Sequence record: OQ025076.1
Strand: one strand, 5' to 3'
Length of the DNA: 64,000 nt
DNA from: Escherichia phage vB_EcoP_YF01
The translations under genes were made by a program, and so were the position numbers. Below the pieces are notes generated by a model. It made no database searches and was not told the origin of the DNA. It worked only from the letters and a program-made list of their open reading frames with translations. This document shows positions 41,561 through 56,909 of the stretch, in pieces. Every line of letters begins with the position of its first letter. Position 1 is the stretch's first letter.

Positions 41561-42053
41561 GGTTCACCTCTACATTGTCATTTAATTTAGCAAAAGATTT
41601 ATGATGAATTGGGGCTGCTTTATTATAAGCCATAGCTGCATCTTCTTCAGAACTAAACTTTCCTAGATACAAGAGCTTATTGTCAACCCTAATCCTTGCT
41701 TCCCATTTACCAGCGTTGAAGTATATTCCTTTATACTTGGTATTCTTTCCCTTCATAACTGAACAGTTTCTGCTATTCTCTGCGGCAGTAGCTGCTCTTA
41801 GGTTATCAGGTCGTTGATCATCTCGTATTCCATTTACATGGTCTACATATTCTGGAAGATATCCGTTGTGTATAAAGAAAGCCACCCTGTGTGCTAGGTA
41901 GACCCTTCCTTTATAGTTAATATGGACATATCCACTATTTGCCTTACTTCCTGCAAAGTCTCCAACCTTCTTTCTAGGTGTATCAACTTTCCAGTAAAGA
42001 CTTCCGTCTTTATACTCAAGAAGAGAGGCAAGTTCTTCTGTACCTTCTATCAA
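41547..42053 (-). CDS. HNH homing endonuclease with AP2 domain
   Basis: Motif YVDHVNGIRDDQRPDNLRAATAAEN plus AP2-like KYKGIYFNAGKWEARIRVDNKLLYLGKF; TTG start. Confidence 0.65.
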   Translation of the reverse strand: MIEGTEELASLLEYKDGSLYWKVDTPRKKVGDFAGSKANSGYVHINYKGRVYLAHRVAFFIHNGYLPEYVDHVNGIRDDQRPDNLRAATAAENSRNCSVMKGKNTKYKGIYFNAGKWEARIRVDNKLLYLGKFSSEEDAAMAYNKAAPIHHKSFAKLNDNVEVNLGNS

Positions 42054-42056
42054 AAC

Positions 42057-44087
42057 TTAACCTCTATTCAATGAACATTTAGGAGAATTACAATAAACTT
42101 GATTCATAGAACCAAGCGTACAACTTTCAGCATCGCGCCACGGAATCTGCTTAAAACACTCTGAGCAGTAGCCGAGGGTTGACCACATGGCTTTGGTGAA
42201 GTCAGTGCTTCGGTTTCCGTCGAAGCTGACAACAGTTTTGCGGAGAGCTGTTCGTGATTCAGGAAACACACCTGCTTTCTCAGCAGGTTCCTCCTTTTTT
42301 GGCTTAGTTGAGATTGCAAAAATACTGTTGCTACGTTTCTCAACATAAGCATCAACAACATCCTCCAGAGTGATGCCTGTCTGTTTCGCTGAGGAAGGTA
42401 ATACAGTCATACGACCGATCATATCTTCAGTTACACGTAAAGCAAATTCAGGACGACGGGCGTTTGTTGTATCTGTTGCTTTAATCCAGACATAACCATC
42501 TTTGATCGTAGCATTAGATACCTTCTTCTTTACTTCTACAGCGCAGACTTTACAGATATCTTCACCACGAAGACGACTGAGTTCCTCATCAAACTCGTTC
42601 TCTGTTTTAACTTCACCGCAGATTTCACAAACACCAATAGGAGTCTCCTCCTCTTCTTCATCTTTAGGTTTAGTCAAACCTTCCAGACATTCAGGGTGCC
42701 AGTAGCACTGATATGCGAAGACTGCTTTAGGTGCATCCTTCCAATCAATGTGTTTGTCACAACCACCGCAATCACCATGAGAGTGTGCTTCCCAGAATTT
42801 ACGAGTGATAGTAACGCCATTCTTATTGACGAAACTATCATTCATGTCAAAAGGGATATCATCATCAAAGTCAGCAGTAGTAGACTCAGGCTCCTTTTTC
42901 TCCAGAGATGGGTCAACAAAACGACCTGCTGTGATCACTAAACGAACCATAGCATTAACTTCGGAGATGCAGGATACTGTCCCACGGTAAACAATTTTAG
43001 GGTCTTTCAGGGCATCCTGATAAGCCTTAATGTCTACGTTATGAACATCACCTTCGATATACTCTTGAGATTTCTCATCGTAGATATAACCAATCATCTT
43101 ACCACGAGAAGGAACAGCACCAGCTGTTGCATAAGGAACAAACTCATGTGGTGTGATTTCCACAGTCATATCGCGGCGAATGTCAATGTTTCGATCGCTT
43201 GCGATTTTGTTTTGACTTACCACTGCGTTTCTTCGACGAACGTCTGCCGCTGTCACTCCCGGCTTCGTGTCGTAAGGATTGCTTGTACTGCTTTTTGAGG
43301 AACTTTGATAATTGCTTTGGCTGTAGTTGTTCGAGTAGTAATTGCCCCAACGATTGATTACCGTAAAAACCGGAAGCTCGTGGGCGACCTCTTCAACTAG
43401 AGTCATACTGTTGTTTGACATGTTAAAGATATACTCTGTACCAACTTTACATTCAAAGTGCTCATCAATTCGGTTTTTGTGAGACTTAGAACGCTTCAGA
43501 ATCCACATCAACATGTCTTCTTCAGAAGCACCAAACCAATCTCTGTTACAACGTGCGAGATGGAAAGGACGCTCTTCGTTGCGGATGATATGAAGGCGGT
43601 TATCAGAAGCATCATGCCAGATTAAGGTGAAAGCACCATCCAGCTTTTGAATAGTCTCTGCTGCACCAATAGTGTTAATAGAGTGGCAGATATTCTCACT
43701 ATCTACCTCGAAGTTTTTACTGTCAGGTAACAGGTCTTGGTCCATCAAGGTTCCGTTATGAACCAGAGTGATGTTACCATGTTGGAAAGGATGGGCGTTC
43801 TTGGCGTTAACTGCACCTTTCGTTGCATGACGGCTGTGACCAACAATCCATGAAGGCGCTACAGTGTAAGCTGTTTCACCAGTGGTGTGCTTCTTGTACT
43901 CATCTTGTAGGATGAATGCGAAAGAAGGAAGAGCTTCTTTATAGGTGAAGACTTCCTTAGTGCTCTTACGCTGACCAAAGATACCAGAGGAATGTTGTCC
44001 TCGGAACACTCCAGCATAAAAGAGTTGGTTGAATACGTCTAAATCAGTGCTTGACAGATTACCGCCAGCTAATACGATGCCACAAAT
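42057..44087 (-). CDS. Class-II (Ntn) glutamine amidotransferase fused to a C-terminal Cys-rich zinc-ribbon domain
   Basis: Motif HSRHATKGAVNAKNAHPFQHGNITLVHNG; C-terminal CxxC clusters. Track ORF starts at GTG 44009, but the frame stays open upstream to (ATT)-CGIVLAGG, giving the catalytic N-terminal Cys with a GGTGG SD 8 nt upstream. Confidence 0.65.
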   Translation of the reverse strand: MCGIVLAGGNLSSTDLDVFNQLFYAGVFRGQHSSGIFGQRKSTKEVFTYKEALPSFAFILQDEYKKHTTGETAYTVAPSWIVGHSRHATKGAVNAKNAHPFQHGNITLVHNGTLMDQDLLPDSKNFEVDSENICHSINTIGAAETIQKLDGAFTLIWHDASDNRLHIIRNEERPFHLARCNRDWFGASEEDMLMWILKRSKSHKNRIDEHFECKVGTEYIFNMSNNSMTLVEEVAHELPVFTVINRWGNYYSNNYSQSNYQSSSKSSTSNPYDTKPGVTAADVRRRNAVVSQNKIASDRNIDIRRDMTVEITPHEFVPYATAGAVPSRGKMIGYIYDEKSQEYIEGDVHNVDIKAYQDALKDPKIVYRGTVSCISEVNAMVRLVITAGRFVDPSLEKKEPESTTADFDDDIPFDMNDSFVNKNGVTITRKFWEAHSHGDCGGCDKHIDWKDAPKAVFAYQCYWHPECLEGLTKPKDEEEEETPIGVCEICGEVKTENEFDEELSRLRGEDICKVCAVEVKKKVSNATIKDGYVWIKATDTTNARRPEFALRVTEDMIGRMTVLPSSAKQTGITLEDVVDAYVEKRSNSIFAISTKPKKEEPAEKAGVFPESRTALRKTVVSFDGNRSTDFTKAMWSTLGYCSECFKQIPWRDAESCTLGSMNQVYCNSPKCSLNRG

Positions 44088-44166
44088 TTTCTAATCCACC
44101 TGAAGGGTAAACCCTTTCATCTAATTAACCTTTAAATTGTGCCCCTTTGTCAGAGGCACCCATTGA

Positions 44167-45270
44167 TTACAGCGCTTGCTCTAACTGATTTTCCAGATGA
44201 TCTGGAATGTATCCTGTGATGTTGCTATCACTGTGACCTGACTCACGTAGCAAGTCAAAAATAGCACGGATACGTTGCTCTGGTGCAGATCGTACAGTAG
44301 ATAGGTCAGTTGTACGAAGCATAACCAGAATCTCTTGGTACAAGTTGTTAGCGTTCCCTCGTACATATCCAAGGAATCCGTAGAAGTCTGAGATAAGACG
44401 TAAGTCAACAAGAACTTCTCCGTTGGAGTTGGTTCGACGTAAACGAATACGACCAGACTGCTCTACTCCATGAGAACGGCAATACAAAACATCACGGGCC
44501 ATACAATACCCTGAATGCAAATCCGATTCGTCCAGATTGTAATCCAGAGGAAGGTAAGGAAGCATTGGGGCAAATCGTACAGTATTTAAATGCTCAATAA
44601 ACTGATCATTGCTCATCTCTGCGTTATCTAAAGCCAGCTTCTTCAACATCAAGAAGCGGTTAACCAGATTGAGAAGTTGACCACGTTTCCACTTAGGCTC
44701 ACTGATACGGAACTCAATCGAACCGTATTGGGCAAGTGGCAGAAGGTTCAGAGATGTATATTTATCCCACGAACGAACCAGACGGTTGAAGAACTCTTCA
44801 TCGTCGTAGTTAAATGCGTCAGAGGCATTCATTACCTGTGCTTGTACCACTGCAAACGCAGGGCAGAAGTTGCTACGGTAACGATGATAGCCTGAACACT
44901 TGAACAACACCTTTTCATAGAAGGTCCAAGCGAGAATGGTTTTCTTGAGGATATTACTATCAGCATCCCTCATATCCATATGAACGTGAGTAGAGCAACG
45001 CCAAGTCCCCTCGGCGTGCGATTCAGCTACTGCTTCACTCAGGTTGTTGATAGCGTCTAACAACTCCTGTCCGTTGTAAGGTCGTGAACATACCATTTCA
45101 CAACCATTACGCAGGGAACCATCCTCTGTACAATCCCACATATCTGCTTCGATATGATCGGAACCTTCGAGTTCAAGTTCAATACCGACACCGCACTGAA
45201 GTGCAATTGAACTATGCGCCTCAGTTAAACGACCTTCTCGATATCCAAAAGTTTGCGCTACAGTTGTCAT
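44167..45270 (-). CDS. Glutamine-synthetase-like amidoligase (carboxylate-amine ligase family)
   Basis: Motifs GVGIELELEG and CSTHVHMDMRD (E-x-E and HVH signatures). Confidence 0.6.
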   Translation of the reverse strand: MTTVAQTFGYREGRLTEAHSSIALQCGVGIELELEGSDHIEADMWDCTEDGSLRNGCEMVCSRPYNGQELLDAINNLSEAVAESHAEGTWRCSTHVHMDMRDADSNILKKTILAWTFYEKVLFKCSGYHRYRSNFCPAFAVVQAQVMNASDAFNYDDEEFFNRLVRSWDKYTSLNLLPLAQYGSIEFRISEPKWKRGQLLNLVNRFLMLKKLALDNAEMSNDQFIEHLNTVRFAPMLPYLPLDYNLDESDLHSGYCMARDVLYCRSHGVEQSGRIRLRRTNSNGEVLVDLRLISDFYGFLGYVRGNANNLYQEILVMLRTTDLSTVRSAPEQRIRAIFDLLRESGHSDSNITGYIPDHLENQLEQAL

Positions 45271-45893: not shown

Positions 45894-46700
45894 TTATGCT
45901 ACCTGAAGGAGTTTGATCTGCTGGTCAGCTTCTTTAACGTTGTTCCCGTTAATGATTTCATGAAGCTTCTCAATCGGAAGGCGAGAGTGCAATGCCATCA
46001 GAGTGGACATGTCACACTGCTGAACAACCTTGTCAACCTGATCGTAAACAAACTTACGGTTTTCACGATCGCTAATCCAGAAGTTAGACAGTGAACGGTA
46101 TTCGATACCATAGTCTTTATAGCGGATTGCAGACGCTTTACCGTAGAGTTCTTTACGGCGAGTATCTTTGTCCATAATTACTGCTGGGAGTGACAGGAAG
46201 TAGTCACACAGCACACCAAGCATCATCTGAGTTTGCAGAGTGATATCCAAAGCACCAACGACACCAAGATGTACGTGACCACCGGCAGTACGAAGCCCCT
46301 TGTTCTGAGAAGTCGGGGATGGGTTTTTCTGACCAGTGAAAGCGTTGAAGTCAGGAGTGCATCCAAAGATGAACGCTGATTCATTAAAGGTCTTCATCTC
46401 TTCTTCGGTGAAGATGTGAGAGCTGACACCCGGAGCTGTTTCCATATCCAGTTTGTTCAGGACATTGTTAGTAAGATCAATACCACGTTGCATGTTATCG
46501 TTAAACGCTTCAAAACCGCTCTGTGGGTCAATGTCAAACTCAGCCAGTACGTTGTCCTCTTGAAGACGAACATCCTTAGCCAGAGTGATCTTATCGTCCT
46601 TAGAACAGCCTAATAGACCAGCTACAGAGGTGATGATACCGTTGCTAGTACGAACGAACATTTCAGGGTCAGAGCCGATAAGGAATTTGCGCTTAGTCAT
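45894..46700 (-). CDS. Second glutamine-synthetase-like amidoligase
   Basis: Motifs LIGSDPEMF and GGHVHLGV. Confidence 0.55.
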   Translation of the reverse strand: MTKRKFLIGSDPEMFVRTSNGIITSVAGLLGCSKDDKITLAKDVRLQEDNVLAEFDIDPQSGFEAFNDNMQRGIDLTNNVLNKLDMETAPGVSSHIFTEEEMKTFNESAFIFGCTPDFNAFTGQKNPSPTSQNKGLRTAGGHVHLGVVGALDITLQTQMMLGVLCDYFLSLPAVIMDKDTRRKELYGKASAIRYKDYGIEYRSLSNFWISDRENRKFVYDQVDKVVQQCDMSTLMALHSRLPIEKLHEIINGNNVKEADQQIKLLQVA

Positions 46701-54385: not shown

Positions 54386-54629
54386 TTGATTCGAGATCTC
54401 TTAGTTGTTCAGCCAATTGTTCGCATTCATTAACGCAGAACTCTTCTGTTCTTGGTATCCCGTTAGGGTTGAACCGTGTCTTATCACCTGCATGGGCACA
54501 ATCAAATCCGATTGTATTTAAACCACCCATTTCTTCAAGGGTGTCTTGCCATGTGACACCACCATGAACACCAACATCACAAACAACCTTTTCCTCTCCG
54601 TTATATCCGGTGAAGTTTTTATGTTTCAA
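54378..54629 (-). CDS. Hypothetical Cys/His-rich protein, N-terminus possibly disrupted by a frameshift
   Basis: Track ORF begins at TTG; its frame is open a further 24 codons upstream (IGPSCCDYAHEQSHLCGYV...) without a start codon, while a 30-codon ATG ORF (54644-54733) runs in another frame. Confidence 0.4.
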   Translation of the reverse strand: MKHKNFTGYNGEEKVVCDVGVHGGVTWQDTLEEMGGLNTIGFDCAHAGDKTRFNPNGIPRTEEFCVNECEQLAEQLRDLESNV

Positions 54630-54779
54630 ACTATCTGGTAACTCTACATACCCACATAAGTGGGATTGTTCATGTGCATAATCACAGCACGAAGGCCCGA
54701 TTTAGTTTCCCAACTTTTAACTATGCGTCTCATATAAGCACCTCTTGTTAGTTTAAGTAAGAGCTGTCCCTTAATTAAA

Positions 54780-54808
54780 ACAACAAAGGCCACCCAAAGG
54801 CAGCCTTT
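54780..54808 (-). terminator. Terminator-like hairpin (minus strand)
   Basis: GGCUGCC-UUUG-GGUGGCC hairpin followed by U-rich tract. Confidence 0.4.
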
Positions 54809-55314
54809 TTATTTATTAACTGTTATATGTCCAACTACCTTGCTTGTTACGGATGGCTGACATTGCATGAACCCAGAAGCCTTCCAGTTTCAGAGCACCG
54901 TTAGCTACTGCATCCATACGTTCAGGGCGGTTCATACGTTTGGTTGATACTTTCATACCTATCTCTCTTTGTTAGTGGAGGCATTATTGCCAGTTGATAT
55001 AAGGGATAGCTCCAGTCAGGAGGCTAATTCTGACCGCGTACTCATTGCCGACCTTCTCTGCCTAAGAGTTCAGGTTCTAGAGCTATCTCTTATTCCAACT
55101 GGTGAAGACTCCCTACCCCTAGGAAGTCTCCTGAATCCCAAACTAATATGTACCCCTACATATCAGAAAGTCTTTCGAAAATTAACAGGTTTTAGTCTAA
55201 CACCGGATGTTCGAGCAAGCTCTCCCTAGCGGTGTGGCATATGCCTGAATTAATAAGTTAATGAGGAACACCCTCACATAGCCCTCTGATAAACACAAGG
55301 GCTATAAGTCGGTG

Positions 55315-55569
55315 TTACTTTTCTTTGTTTGTAATTACTGCATCATGGATAACTGAAACAGGTAAGTTTGAATCTAGCTTCATTACTTGATTGGTACTTA
55401 AACTAAGCACTACACAACCATTCCGAAGATCAGTCTCTGACACATGTGGTGTATATAACTGAACGATCATGTAATAATCAATACATGTTGCCTTAACTTG
55501 GAAAACATCACCGAGTTTCAAATCACCCACACGCAATTCTTTAGCTTTAAGGTTCAGATCAATCTTCAT
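55315..55569 (-). CDS. Small early protein, paralog family member 5
   Basis: Pattern LRVGDLKLGDVFQV...YYMIV. Confidence 0.45.
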   Translation of the reverse strand: MKIDLNLKAKELRVGDLKLGDVFQVKATCIDYYMIVQLYTPHVSETDLRNGCVVLSLSTNQVMKLDSNLPVSVIHDAVITNKEK

Positions 55570-55795
55570 CTTTAGCCTCTATATTAGTTATGTGGAGATC
55601 ACTGCGTACTTGGCAGACTTCATCCCGCTTAAAAGGCATGAGCTTTCCAGTTACCACATCAACGCAGTTCACATAGTTATCTGCGTACAGGGTGTCGGTT
55701 CTAATGTAAAGAGAGTCTTTACGCTCAAATAGAACGCCCGGCTTCATGTTGTTTAAGCGAAGCATTGTACGATCGGATTTAATATTAACTTTCAC
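55559..55795 (-). CDS. Small early protein, paralog family member 6
   Basis: Pattern MLRLNNMKPGVLFERKD.LYIRTD...CVDVVTG. Confidence 0.45.
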   Translation of the reverse strand: MKVNIKSDRTMLRLNNMKPGVLFERKDSLYIRTDTLYADNYVNCVDVVTGKLMPFKRDEVCQVRSDLHITNIEAKDED

Positions 55796-55797
55796 TG

Positions 55798-56058
55798 TTA
55801 ATCCACCTTATTGGTAAGCCGAGCATTGCTGACCTTCTTGATGACTGTATTACCTTCATCCGTTGCAATAACGCCACAGGAAAGATTGATATAACTTCTC
55901 TTGTCTGTTGTCCCAAACTTCTGACTAGATAACATATAGTAATTCTCCCCATCCAGAGGGAACTGGAATACATCACCTGATTCTAAATCCCCAAGAGTTA
56001 AAACCTTTGGGGCGTTGTTCATATCAATTATCACTGTTAATCTCCTGCTGCTTAGCAA
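55798..56058 (-). CDS. Small early protein, paralog family member 7
   Basis: Pattern LTLGDLESGDVFQF...YYML...INLSCG. Confidence 0.45.
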   Translation of the reverse strand: MLSSRRLTVIIDMNNAPKVLTLGDLESGDVFQFPLDGENYYMLSSQKFGTTDKRSYINLSCGVIATDEGNTVIKKVSNARLTNKVD

Positions 56059-56320
56059 TAGCTACTCGCAAGTCTTCATTAGCACGAGCAAGGCGTAACA
56101 CTTCGTGGTTGAGGCTCTGAAGACGCTTGTTTCTGTCCTCAACTTGCATAATAAGATCGTTGAGTGTTACTTTAACTTTCTCATTATACATCTCATCCAC
56201 TCGAACTAGGGATTTATACATTCTCTCCCAGCTTGCTGCTTTGTTTCTTAGAACAATGAATCCTAGAACGCTGATAGTTAAACAGCTTACAAAAAGGAAT
56301 TTATATACTTCTAAAGTCAT
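56024..56320 (-). CDS. Membrane-anchored coiled-coil protein
   Basis: N-terminal TM FLFVSCLTISVLGFIVL then charged helical region. Confidence 0.45.
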   Translation of the reverse strand: MTLEVYKFLFVSCLTISVLGFIVLRNKAASWERMYKSLVRVDEMYNEKVKVTLNDLIMQVEDRNKRLQSLNHEVLRLARANEDLRVAIAKQQEINSDN

Positions 56321-56519
56321 ATTATTTACCCTTTATCAGAGATTAAAAGTAATATTATTTAAGTAAGTTATATTTAGTAAACTTATTTTCTAAGAAATTT
56401 TCAAAGGGTCTATATACAGAGCATTACCCATAGTCCCAGAATACTACCATCTTTTTCAATAAATTTACTAAGTGGTTGGTTTATAAAGGAATTTAGTTTG
56501 TCAAATCTGGCACTAGTGA

Positions 56520-56909
56520 TTATTCCCTAGAGCTGTTATCGAACACTAAATCACCACAATACATAGGATTGGCATACCATTTTGGCACCCCTTCGCTCTT
56601 ACTCTGAAAGTAAGTCCCACTGTACAGCGGAACATAATTCTTCTTAAGGGCACGTTTAGCAAGTCGCTCGCTTTCTCCAATGGCTTGCTTAGTCATCGGA
56701 TTTTTATCACGAATCAGCTTTACATAACGTTTATAAGGTTTCTCCTGTTTTAATAGTACCGGAATCCACTCAAACTGGTTCTTTTGTCTTATCACCTGTT
56801 CAGCGGTCAGTTTTCGTTGGGCCATTCTATTTATCACGGTATCCGCAACCATAGCTTTACATGCGGTTGGCTGATTCCCTGCCTCATAATAAATAGTCAA
56901 TGTCAACAT
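56520..56909 (-). CDS. Cell-wall hydrolase, SleB/CwlJ-like (Hydrolase_2 family)
   Basis: N-terminal signature LTIYYEAGNQPTACKAMVADTVINRMA resembling the SleB-family YYEA...AV..VVLNR motif. Confidence 0.55.
   Translation of the reverse strand: MLTLTIYYEAGNQPTACKAMVADTVINRMAQRKLTAEQVIRQKNQFEWIPVLLKQEKPYKRYVKLIRDKNPMTKQAIGESERLAKRALKKNYVPLYSGTYFQSKSEGVPKWYANPMYCGDLVFDNSSRE

Follow-up and report, generated by a model that had tools for sequence, protein, structure and literature searches.

A probable AUU initiation codon directly before the catalytic cysteine of a class-II glutamine amidotransferase in Escherichia phage vB_EcoP_YF01 and related phages

Every class-II (N-terminal nucleophile, Ntn) amidotransferase needs a free N-terminal cysteine as its nucleophile, and propeptide processing is known among these enzymes: the propeptide of Bacillus subtilis PurF has 11 residues, and glutamate synthase is processed likewise. 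Here, we describe a class-II amidotransferase gene encoded on the minus strand of a 64,000-nt stretch of DNA (referred to below as the window) of Escherichia phage vB_EcoP_YF01 (OQ025076.1), in which the codon directly before the cysteine codon is ATT. Genes initiated at AUU are very rare. Escherichia coli has only two AUU-initiated genes, infC and pcnB, both textbook examples of regulation through the start codon, and annotated bacterial starts at AUU or AUC amount to 0.004–0.024% (PMC5499595). In its own context the AUU of infC is about 4-fold weaker than AUG, and ribosomes use it in roughly equal shares by starting de novo and by re-initiating (PMC3592434). Initiation factor 3 (IF3) selectively represses AUU, and across bacteria the start codon of infC is AUU or AUC (PMC5499595). 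The AUU start of pcnB limits its expression, according to Binns and Masters (2002; as cited in PMC3592434 and PMC5499595).

The longest canonical open reading frame (ORF) of the amidotransferase starts at GTG 44009 and encodes 650 aa. Its frame remains open for a further 27 codons, back to TAG 44093-44091, and the ATT (44087-44085) lies 26 codons 5' of the GTG, directly before the Cys codon (ATT-TGT at 44087-44082). Between the TAG and the Cys codon there are AAA and ATT only, with no in-frame ATG, GTG or TTG. A preliminary description, made from the sequence alone, had proposed initiation at this ATT as the only possible initiator before the Cys; the ATT-TGT layout, the GTG, the upstream open frame and a GGTGG motif 8 nt before the ATT all proved correctly placed on re-reading, and no other initiator was found. 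A detail it missed is ATG 44120, which lies in the amidotransferase frame and opens a 9-codon mini-ORF that the TAG closes. The minus strand (44120 to 44079) reads ATG AAA GGG TTT ACC CTT CAG GTG GAT TAG AAA ATT TGT GGC ATC GTA, and its translation from 44120 is MKGFTLQVD*KICGIVLAGGNLSSTDLDVFNQLFYAGVFRGQ. From the comparisons set out below, we infer that the amidotransferase is most probably translated from the AUU at 44087, and that Met is then removed to expose Cys1.

The first line of evidence comes from homologues. ATG-TGT occurs at exactly the Cys1 position in more distant phages (L009-L013, including Salmonella phage 7-11), as the preliminary description had suggested checking; 98 of 120 protein homologues start with MCG, and ATG precedes Cys1 in 69 of the 82 loci with a locatable Cys1 codon (80 IMG/VR loci together with L018, L020 and L022 were surveyed). 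The region is 96–99% identical to that of E. coli phages of the genus Kuravirus (phiEco32-like, Gordonclarkvirinae), the best match being SR02 (98.6%). A 35-nt start region (GGGTTTACCCTTCAGGTGGATTAGAAAATTTGTGG) is identical in 96 of 96 Kuravirus records, with the ATT invariant, and the 50-nt leader shows 0 substitutions between genomes whose synonymous sites differ by ~0.7. Aeromonas phage BUCT695 (Grimontviridae), in which the N-terminal region of the amidotransferase is about 55% identical, retains ATG-AAAGGGTTAACCCTTCAGGCGGAT-TAG-AAA-ATT-TGT. Judging from these alignments, the pattern of the start region is not due to chance: in the alignment, the 26 extra codons match the family's conserved N-terminus, and the start region is identical in the 96 related records.

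The likeness between Kuravirus and BUCT695 extends to a leader of ~60 nt (44079-44136, minus strand, and L018 2505-2560, respectively), which is 92% identical, the amidotransferases being ~55% identical over their first ~230 residues. The BUCT695 protein resembles the 7-11-like ATG-start genes (0.61) more than it does Kuravirus (0.55), and the shared leader may reflect either extreme constraint or an exchange of leaders between phage families. Another member, L049 (IMGVR_UViG_3300025276_000050), starts ATG TGC TGT GGA (Met-Cys-Cys-Gly), i.e., its protein would either carry two consecutive cysteines or have a first Cys that is removed or unused.

The second line of evidence concerns the protein encoded by the disputed codons. 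Pfam matches run from the Cys onward (GATase_6 at 1e-14, GATase_7 at 4e-6). A phmmer search of PDB sequences gave weak matches only (E about 0.03), and a fold comparison was therefore needed. The AlphaFold2 model of residues 1-275 has a predicted local distance difference test (pLDDT) score of 90.9 (95-97 for the first 30 residues), with Cys1 heading strand 1 (residues 2-7) and helix 1 spanning residues 12-28. Foldseek searches with this model retrieved the glutaminase domains of GlmS (1xff/2j6h, E 5e-14), PurF (1ao0/1ecf), AsnS and EgtC. The predicted structure shows the four-layer alpha-beta-beta-alpha fold of the class-II Ntn domain with the nucleophile at the start of strand 1; in this comparison, a further check proposed in the preliminary description, the domain starts at the Cys and not after the GTG. 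Residues C1, G2, R28, G29, N110, G111 and D128 are invariant across an alignment of 49 sequences. The conserved glutamine-site residues are present as Arg-Gly after helix 1, the Asn-Gly of the oxyanion hole and Asp, and we take R28/G29, N110/G111 and D128 to be equivalent to the corresponding residues of GlmS. Because the GTG encodes Val26, a start at this codon would, in terms of the model, remove strand 1, helix 1 and the nucleophile Cys1; residues 1-25, absent from the GTG-start product, include CGIVLAGGNLSSTDLDVFNQLFYAGVFR. Compared with two diverged Kuravirus genomes (L006 and L007), codons Cys1-Val26 have a nonsynonymous divergence (pN) of 0.08 and a synonymous divergence (pS) of 0.64–0.76, which clearly indicates purifying selection at the protein level and hence translation of this segment. 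The C-terminal 441 residues gave no Pfam match, so no synthase domain can be recognised. This region (42057-43382, minus strand) contains several CxxC-type cysteine clusters; most homologues total 420–480 aa, the Kuravirus protein having a large extra C-terminal region.

The ATT start is not new, as it is already present in the phiEco32 reference annotation. A coding sequence (CDS) of 2031 nt starting at the ATT is annotated in phiEco32 (NC_010324, phi32_83, 54493..56523), SU10 (SU10_085), LAMP (phiL_083) and the BASEL phage Bas93 (Bas93_0070). The annotated CDS starts of phiEco32 (n = 128) comprise 112 ATG, 13 GTG, 2 TTG and the single ATT of phi32_83, and the choice made by its annotators was therefore deliberate. 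Among the 60 Kuravirus records listed, the CDS covers the ATT in only 8; other starts in the records are the GTG (SR02), an ATG ~260 nt downstream (Paul, NJ01) and, in BUCT695, a downstream ATG. Similarly, all seven metagenome gene calls examined for ATT-start members (P0026, P0032, P0058, P0059, P0062, P0079 and P0108) start downstream at ATG or GTG and lack Cys1. Such truncated entries lose the catalytic residue, so that domain-based function prediction and structure modelling begin from the wrong protein. Literature searches, which did not cover the original phiEco32 paper, found no paper discussing or testing an ATT start in phiEco32 or in phage amidotransferases. What is added here, and was not found described, is a putative family-wide, infC-like AUU/AUC module with a covarying hairpin.

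Non-canonical codons before Cys1 are distributed widely in the family. In all seven homologues whose gene calls lack the N-terminus, the contigs read an in-frame stop followed by ATT-TGY, with no canonical start. The IMG/VR sample contained 3 further loci with ATT and 1 with ATC before Cys1, and a scan of IMG/VR for the pattern GGAGG-N8-codon-TGY-GG returned, as unique family members, 15 with ATT, 5 with ATC and 5 with ATG. Beyond Kuravirus and BUCT695, at least 25 more unique leaders have ATT or ATC before Cys1, and 13 of the 15 unique IMG/VR ATT leaders have no in-frame canonical start between the stop and the ATT. Roughly one in ten genes of the family appears to use AUU or AUC. The ATT lineages are not clustered by protein identity; the nearest neighbours of each are ATG genes, and a single clade of ATT starts was therefore rejected. 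The features expected of AUU/AUC-initiated genes are found together here: (i) a non-canonical codon where orthologues have AUG, (ii) a Shine-Dalgarno (SD) sequence at a functional distance, and (iii) conservation of the codon across lineages.

The leaders of these genes also differ from those of the ATG genes. In a comparison of 12 dereplicated ATT/ATC leaders with 54 ATG leaders, in tests without correction for phylogeny, the median energy of the SD/anti-SD duplex was -9.85 vs. -6.1 kcal/mol (p = 3.6e-5), GGAGG was present in 8/12 vs. 1/54 leaders (Fisher p = 7e-7), and the median energy of the hairpin directly 5' of the SD was -6.1 vs. -1.8 kcal/mol (p = 4e-4). In most of the other ATT/ATC lineages GGAGG stands 8 nt before the start; Kuravirus has GGTGG and BUCT695 GGCGG at this place. 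For a covariance model of the hairpin, SD and ATT, 31 leaders were aligned; in this alignment, itself fitted to the hairpin model, 88.8% of cells are paired, a level that none of 500 shuffles reached (44.7% in shuffles), double-sided changes number 72 where 20.8 were expected, all 6 of 6 pairs covary, and slid controls reach <=52%. The loop sequences are not conserved across leaders, which favours a structural role over a sequence-specific protein site. A helix sequestering the SD (GGUUUACC/GGUGGAUU) was dropped as a conserved feature, since its pairing is not kept in BUCT695. There is no second copy of the leader hairpin in the window, and an Rfam scan of 43950-44250 (E<=1) yielded two chance-level matches only (astro_FSE, 16 bits vs. 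a gathering score of 70, and TLS-PK6).

Initiation at the AUU, the reading put forward in the preliminary description, is supported by the homologues, the selection on codons 1-26, the predicted fold and the existing annotations. In the mechanism we propose, the AGGUGG SD sequence, 8–9 nt upstream, would position the 30S subunit, and the initiator formylmethionyl-tRNA (fMet-tRNA) would read the AUU; deformylase and methionine aminopeptidase would then take off the Met, so that Cys1 becomes the free N-terminal nucleophile. Since no codon other than the one immediately preceding Cys1 can be the start, the choice of start codon is visible and fixed. By analogy with E. coli infC, the weak, IF3-discriminated AUU probably limits expression or ties it to the IF3 level. 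Ribosomes ending at the mini-ORF stop, 3 nt before the AUU, may supplement de novo initiation by re-initiating, and the linkage of a weak SD with a mini-ORF suggests that re-initiation may contribute in Kuravirus and BUCT695.

Several points weigh against this interpretation. The SD/anti-SD duplex of Kuravirus, at -5.9 kcal/mol, is moderate and falls below that of the GGAGG of other ATT lineages, and an alternative RNA fold can pair the Kuravirus SD with an upstream UUUACC. Searches of the accessible literature yielded no N-terminal data for the amidotransferase; mass spectrometry identified 9 peptides of the SU10 homologue, none of them N-terminal, and it is listed at 63.8 kDa, a mass that matches the shorter gene model (PMC4281155). 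The lack of phylogenetic correction in the leader comparison and the fitting of the covariance alignment to the hairpin model count on the same side, as does the ATG at 44120, which shares the amidotransferase frame with the TAG alone in between and leaves room for read-through or coupling.

The alternative that survives best shares the AUU start and differs only in how ribosomes arrive: the mini-ORF (ATG 44120 to TAG 44091) would be translated and most initiation at the AUU would be re-initiation, with de novo, SD-directed initiation being minor. The arrangement of stop, 3-nt gap and AUU is the same as at thrS-infC (PMC3592434), and a mini-ORF is found only in the two lineages with a weak SD (GGTGG in Kuravirus, GGCGG in BUCT695), whereas among 10 other ATT/ATC leaders GGAGG is present in 8 and a mini-ORF in none. 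Both lineages have kept its ATG, frame and TAG (BUCT695 reading MKGLTLQAD*), and its translation would melt both the hairpin and the alternative SD-sequestering helix. However, the SD of the mini-ORF itself is weak in Kuravirus (AAGG, 8 nt upstream) and missing in BUCT695, the two mini-ORFs differ at two nucleotides, each of which changes an amino acid (F->L, V->A), so that the peptide sequence is not maintained, and an in-frame ATG could well occur within 10 codons by chance. Moreover, Kuravirus and BUCT695 share the whole leader and are not independent observations. We therefore regard re-initiation as an unlikely main route.

Much less probable is read-through of the TAG from ATG 44120, followed by autocatalytic removal of a 12-residue propeptide (MKGFTLQVD-X-KI) that would expose Cys1. 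Such exposure of Cys1 by cutting a short propeptide would resemble B. subtilis PurF and glutamate synthase, but in the phage gene the in-frame TAG (44093-44091) separates the sole upstream ATG from the Cys, so that no uninterrupted canonical start precedes it. A homologue with 65% identity (P0004; L019 1470-1515) is called with a short extension before the Cys (MTKI-CG), and reads TAG GTG ACT AAA ATT TGT; the gene caller starts it at the GTG, which, however, belongs to an AGGTG SD-like motif 6 nt upstream of the ATT. This gene may have another ATT start or a genuine 4-residue propeptide. Against read-through, no suppressor tRNA was found, both the window and the complete phiEco32 genome having tRNA-Arg(TCT) as their only tRNA, and TAG ends 14 annotated phiEco32 CDSs, i.e., it serves as an ordinary stop. 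In none of the other ATT/ATC lineages examined does an in-frame ATG precede the stop, and only two of them have any in-frame canonical start; read-through therefore cannot be the general mechanism. The fallback of the preliminary description, namely recoding or processing, is disfavoured on the grounds that most other ATT/ATC lineages lack an in-frame upstream canonical start, and it retains a foothold in Kuravirus through the in-frame mini-ORF.

Slightly less probable still is that the protein starts at GTG 44009, or at the ATG ~260 nt downstream (as in Paul and NJ01), in which case it would have no Cys1 and no glutaminase activity and the 26 codons would be an untranslated relic. A downstream start is the annotation in most public records and fits the expected mass of 63.8 kDa for SU10, but it is opposed by the strong protein-level purifying selection on codons 1-26, by the invariance of Cys1 and Gly2 across the family and by the loss of strand 1 and helix 1 from a confidently predicted domain, and neither the GTG nor the ATG has comparative support. 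A sequencing error or pseudogene, with the ATT arising from a true ATG by misreading or mutation, has only the rarity of ATT starts in its favour and can be dismissed, given the identical sequence in 96 independently sequenced genomes and the same ATT/ATC arrangement in many unrelated metagenomic lineages, including the IMG/VR ATT members. Frameshifting was also rejected: by inspection, AAAATTTG forms no X XXY YYZ heptamer leading into the amidotransferase frame, and the out-of-frame TTG inside ATTTG opens an 8-codon ORF only.

Upstream of the leader there is a conserved box, TTTAAAGGTTAAT (Table 1), which is unique in the window and does not match the gp36 promoter consensus tAATGTAtA (PMC8948821). 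The box precedes the leader or the ATG in Kuravirus, L009, L010, L011 and L018 (phages of 77–92 kb), and its form in non-Kuravirus phages, CTTTAAATGTAA, resembles the AATGTA core of the phiEco32 gp36 promoter. A sigma-70 scan revealed no promoter-like site near the leader on the coding strand, and the published promoter list of SU10 has none before the amidotransferase gene. A leader acting as a promoter, with the transcript starting at the mini-ORF ATG, is thus unsupported by the sigma-70 scan, the box comparison and the SU10 promoter list. Further upstream, the GC-rich hairpin directly after the amidoligase stop has arms GTGCC/GGCAC or GCGC/GCGC in different Kuravirus subgroups, a compensatory change, and record WFI101126 has a terminator annotated under a 1-kb match spanning this site. 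On the other side of the amidotransferase gene, the HNH_3 ORF is probably an inserted homing endonuclease; phiEco32 has no HNH gene at the equivalent place, phi32_82 following phi32_83 directly. In L104 and BUCT695, too, the amidotransferase is flanked by HNH-like genes or what is left of them.

Table 1. Features of the amidotransferase locus and its surroundings in the window of vB_EcoP_YF01.
Feature	Position	Strand	Remarks
ATP-grasp protein	39926-41119		Cluster member
HNH_3 endonuclease ORF	41547-42053	-	TTG start, 168 aa, Pfam 3e-14; directly after the amidotransferase stop
Class-II (Ntn) glutamine amidotransferase CDS	42057..44087	-	Proposed ATT initiator, 675 codons, then stop; homologue of phiEco32 phi32_83
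Ntn glutaminase domain, residues 1 to ~234	43383..44084	-	Pfam GATase_6, AlphaFold2 model, Foldseek
GTG, internal Val26 codon	44007..44009	-	Probable false start, chosen by ORF finders and in the SR02 record
TGT, catalytic Cys1 of the Ntn glutaminase domain	44082..44084	-	Invariant alignment column; N-terminus of strand 1 in the predicted model
ATT, proposed initiation codon (read as fMet)	44085..44087	-	Sole near-cognate codon between the in-frame TAG and Cys1
In-frame 9-codon mini-ORF ATG...TAG, MKGFTLQVD*	44091..44120	-	Stop 3 nt before the ATT; read from the sequence
SD-like AGGTGG	44096..44101	-	Its GGTGG (44100-44096) lies 8 nt before the ATT
Leader hairpin GAAAGGG-TTTA-CCCTTC	44102..44118	-	Adjoins the SD; RNAfold -6.1 kcal/mol
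Conserved TTTAAAGGTTAAT box, 5' of the leader	44124..44136	-	CTTTAAATGTAA in 7-11-like phages and BUCT695
GC-rich hairpin, terminator-like without a good T-run	44139..44159	-	After the amidoligase gene; arms compensatory in L006
Amidoligase_2	44167-45270		Cluster member 5' of the amidotransferase
COOH-NH2 ligase	45894-46700		Cluster member; hypothetical gene next

By analogy with infC, it is possible, though we put it forward only tentatively, that the leader composed of hairpin, GGAGG, 8-nt spacer and AUU or AUC is a conserved IF3-sensing control element that times or caps amidotransferase expression in many unrelated phages, the Kuravirus/BUCT695 type being a derived form in which a 9-codon in-frame upstream ORF, with the stop, 3-nt gap and AUU of thrS-infC, takes over from the strong SD in bringing ribosomes to the start. 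If this were true, expression of the amidotransferase would rise as free IF3 falls during host shut-off. The family offers a natural set of dozens of putative AUU/AUC starts whose position is fixed by enzymology, as the Cys must be residue 1, and it suits the testing of SD strength, flanking structure, mini-ORFs and IF3 at non-canonical starts during phage infection.

With GlmS, PurF and AsnB the phage protein shares the N-terminal Cys after the initiator, the predicted fold and the conserved Arg-Gly, Asn-Gly and Asp residues; it differs from them in that sequence identity is only about 18%, no synthase domain is recognisable, and the gene is located in a cluster with amidoligase, COOH-NH2 ligase and ATP-grasp genes. 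The E. coli pcnB gene is similar in having an inefficient AUU on an enzyme gene, apparently keeping translation low, but it has no need for residue 2 as a catalytic nucleophile. A close parallel is infC. Read directly, the E. coli thrS-infC junction (TTGGAGGAATAAGGTATTAAAGGC) carries GGAGG-AATAAGGT-ATT with an 8-nt spacer, and the thrS TAA lies 3 nt before the ATT; infC therefore reads GGAGGAA-TAA-GGT-ATT, where the phage loci L107 and L181 read GGAGGAT-TAG-AAA-ATT (GGAGGATTAGAAAATT) and the window GGTGGAT-TAG-AAA-ATT (GGTGGATTAGAAAATT). In both systems the non-canonical codon is conserved across lineages, and AUU and AUC alternate in the phage family as they do in infC (PMC5499595). Unlike infC, the phage gene encodes an enzyme and not IF3, so there is no autoregulatory loop and the gene, if it depended on IF3 at all, would sense it in one direction only; a covarying hairpin against the SD is an addition in the phage leaders, and in Kuravirus the SD is GGTGG and the upstream ORF a 9-codon mini-ORF, not a full gene.

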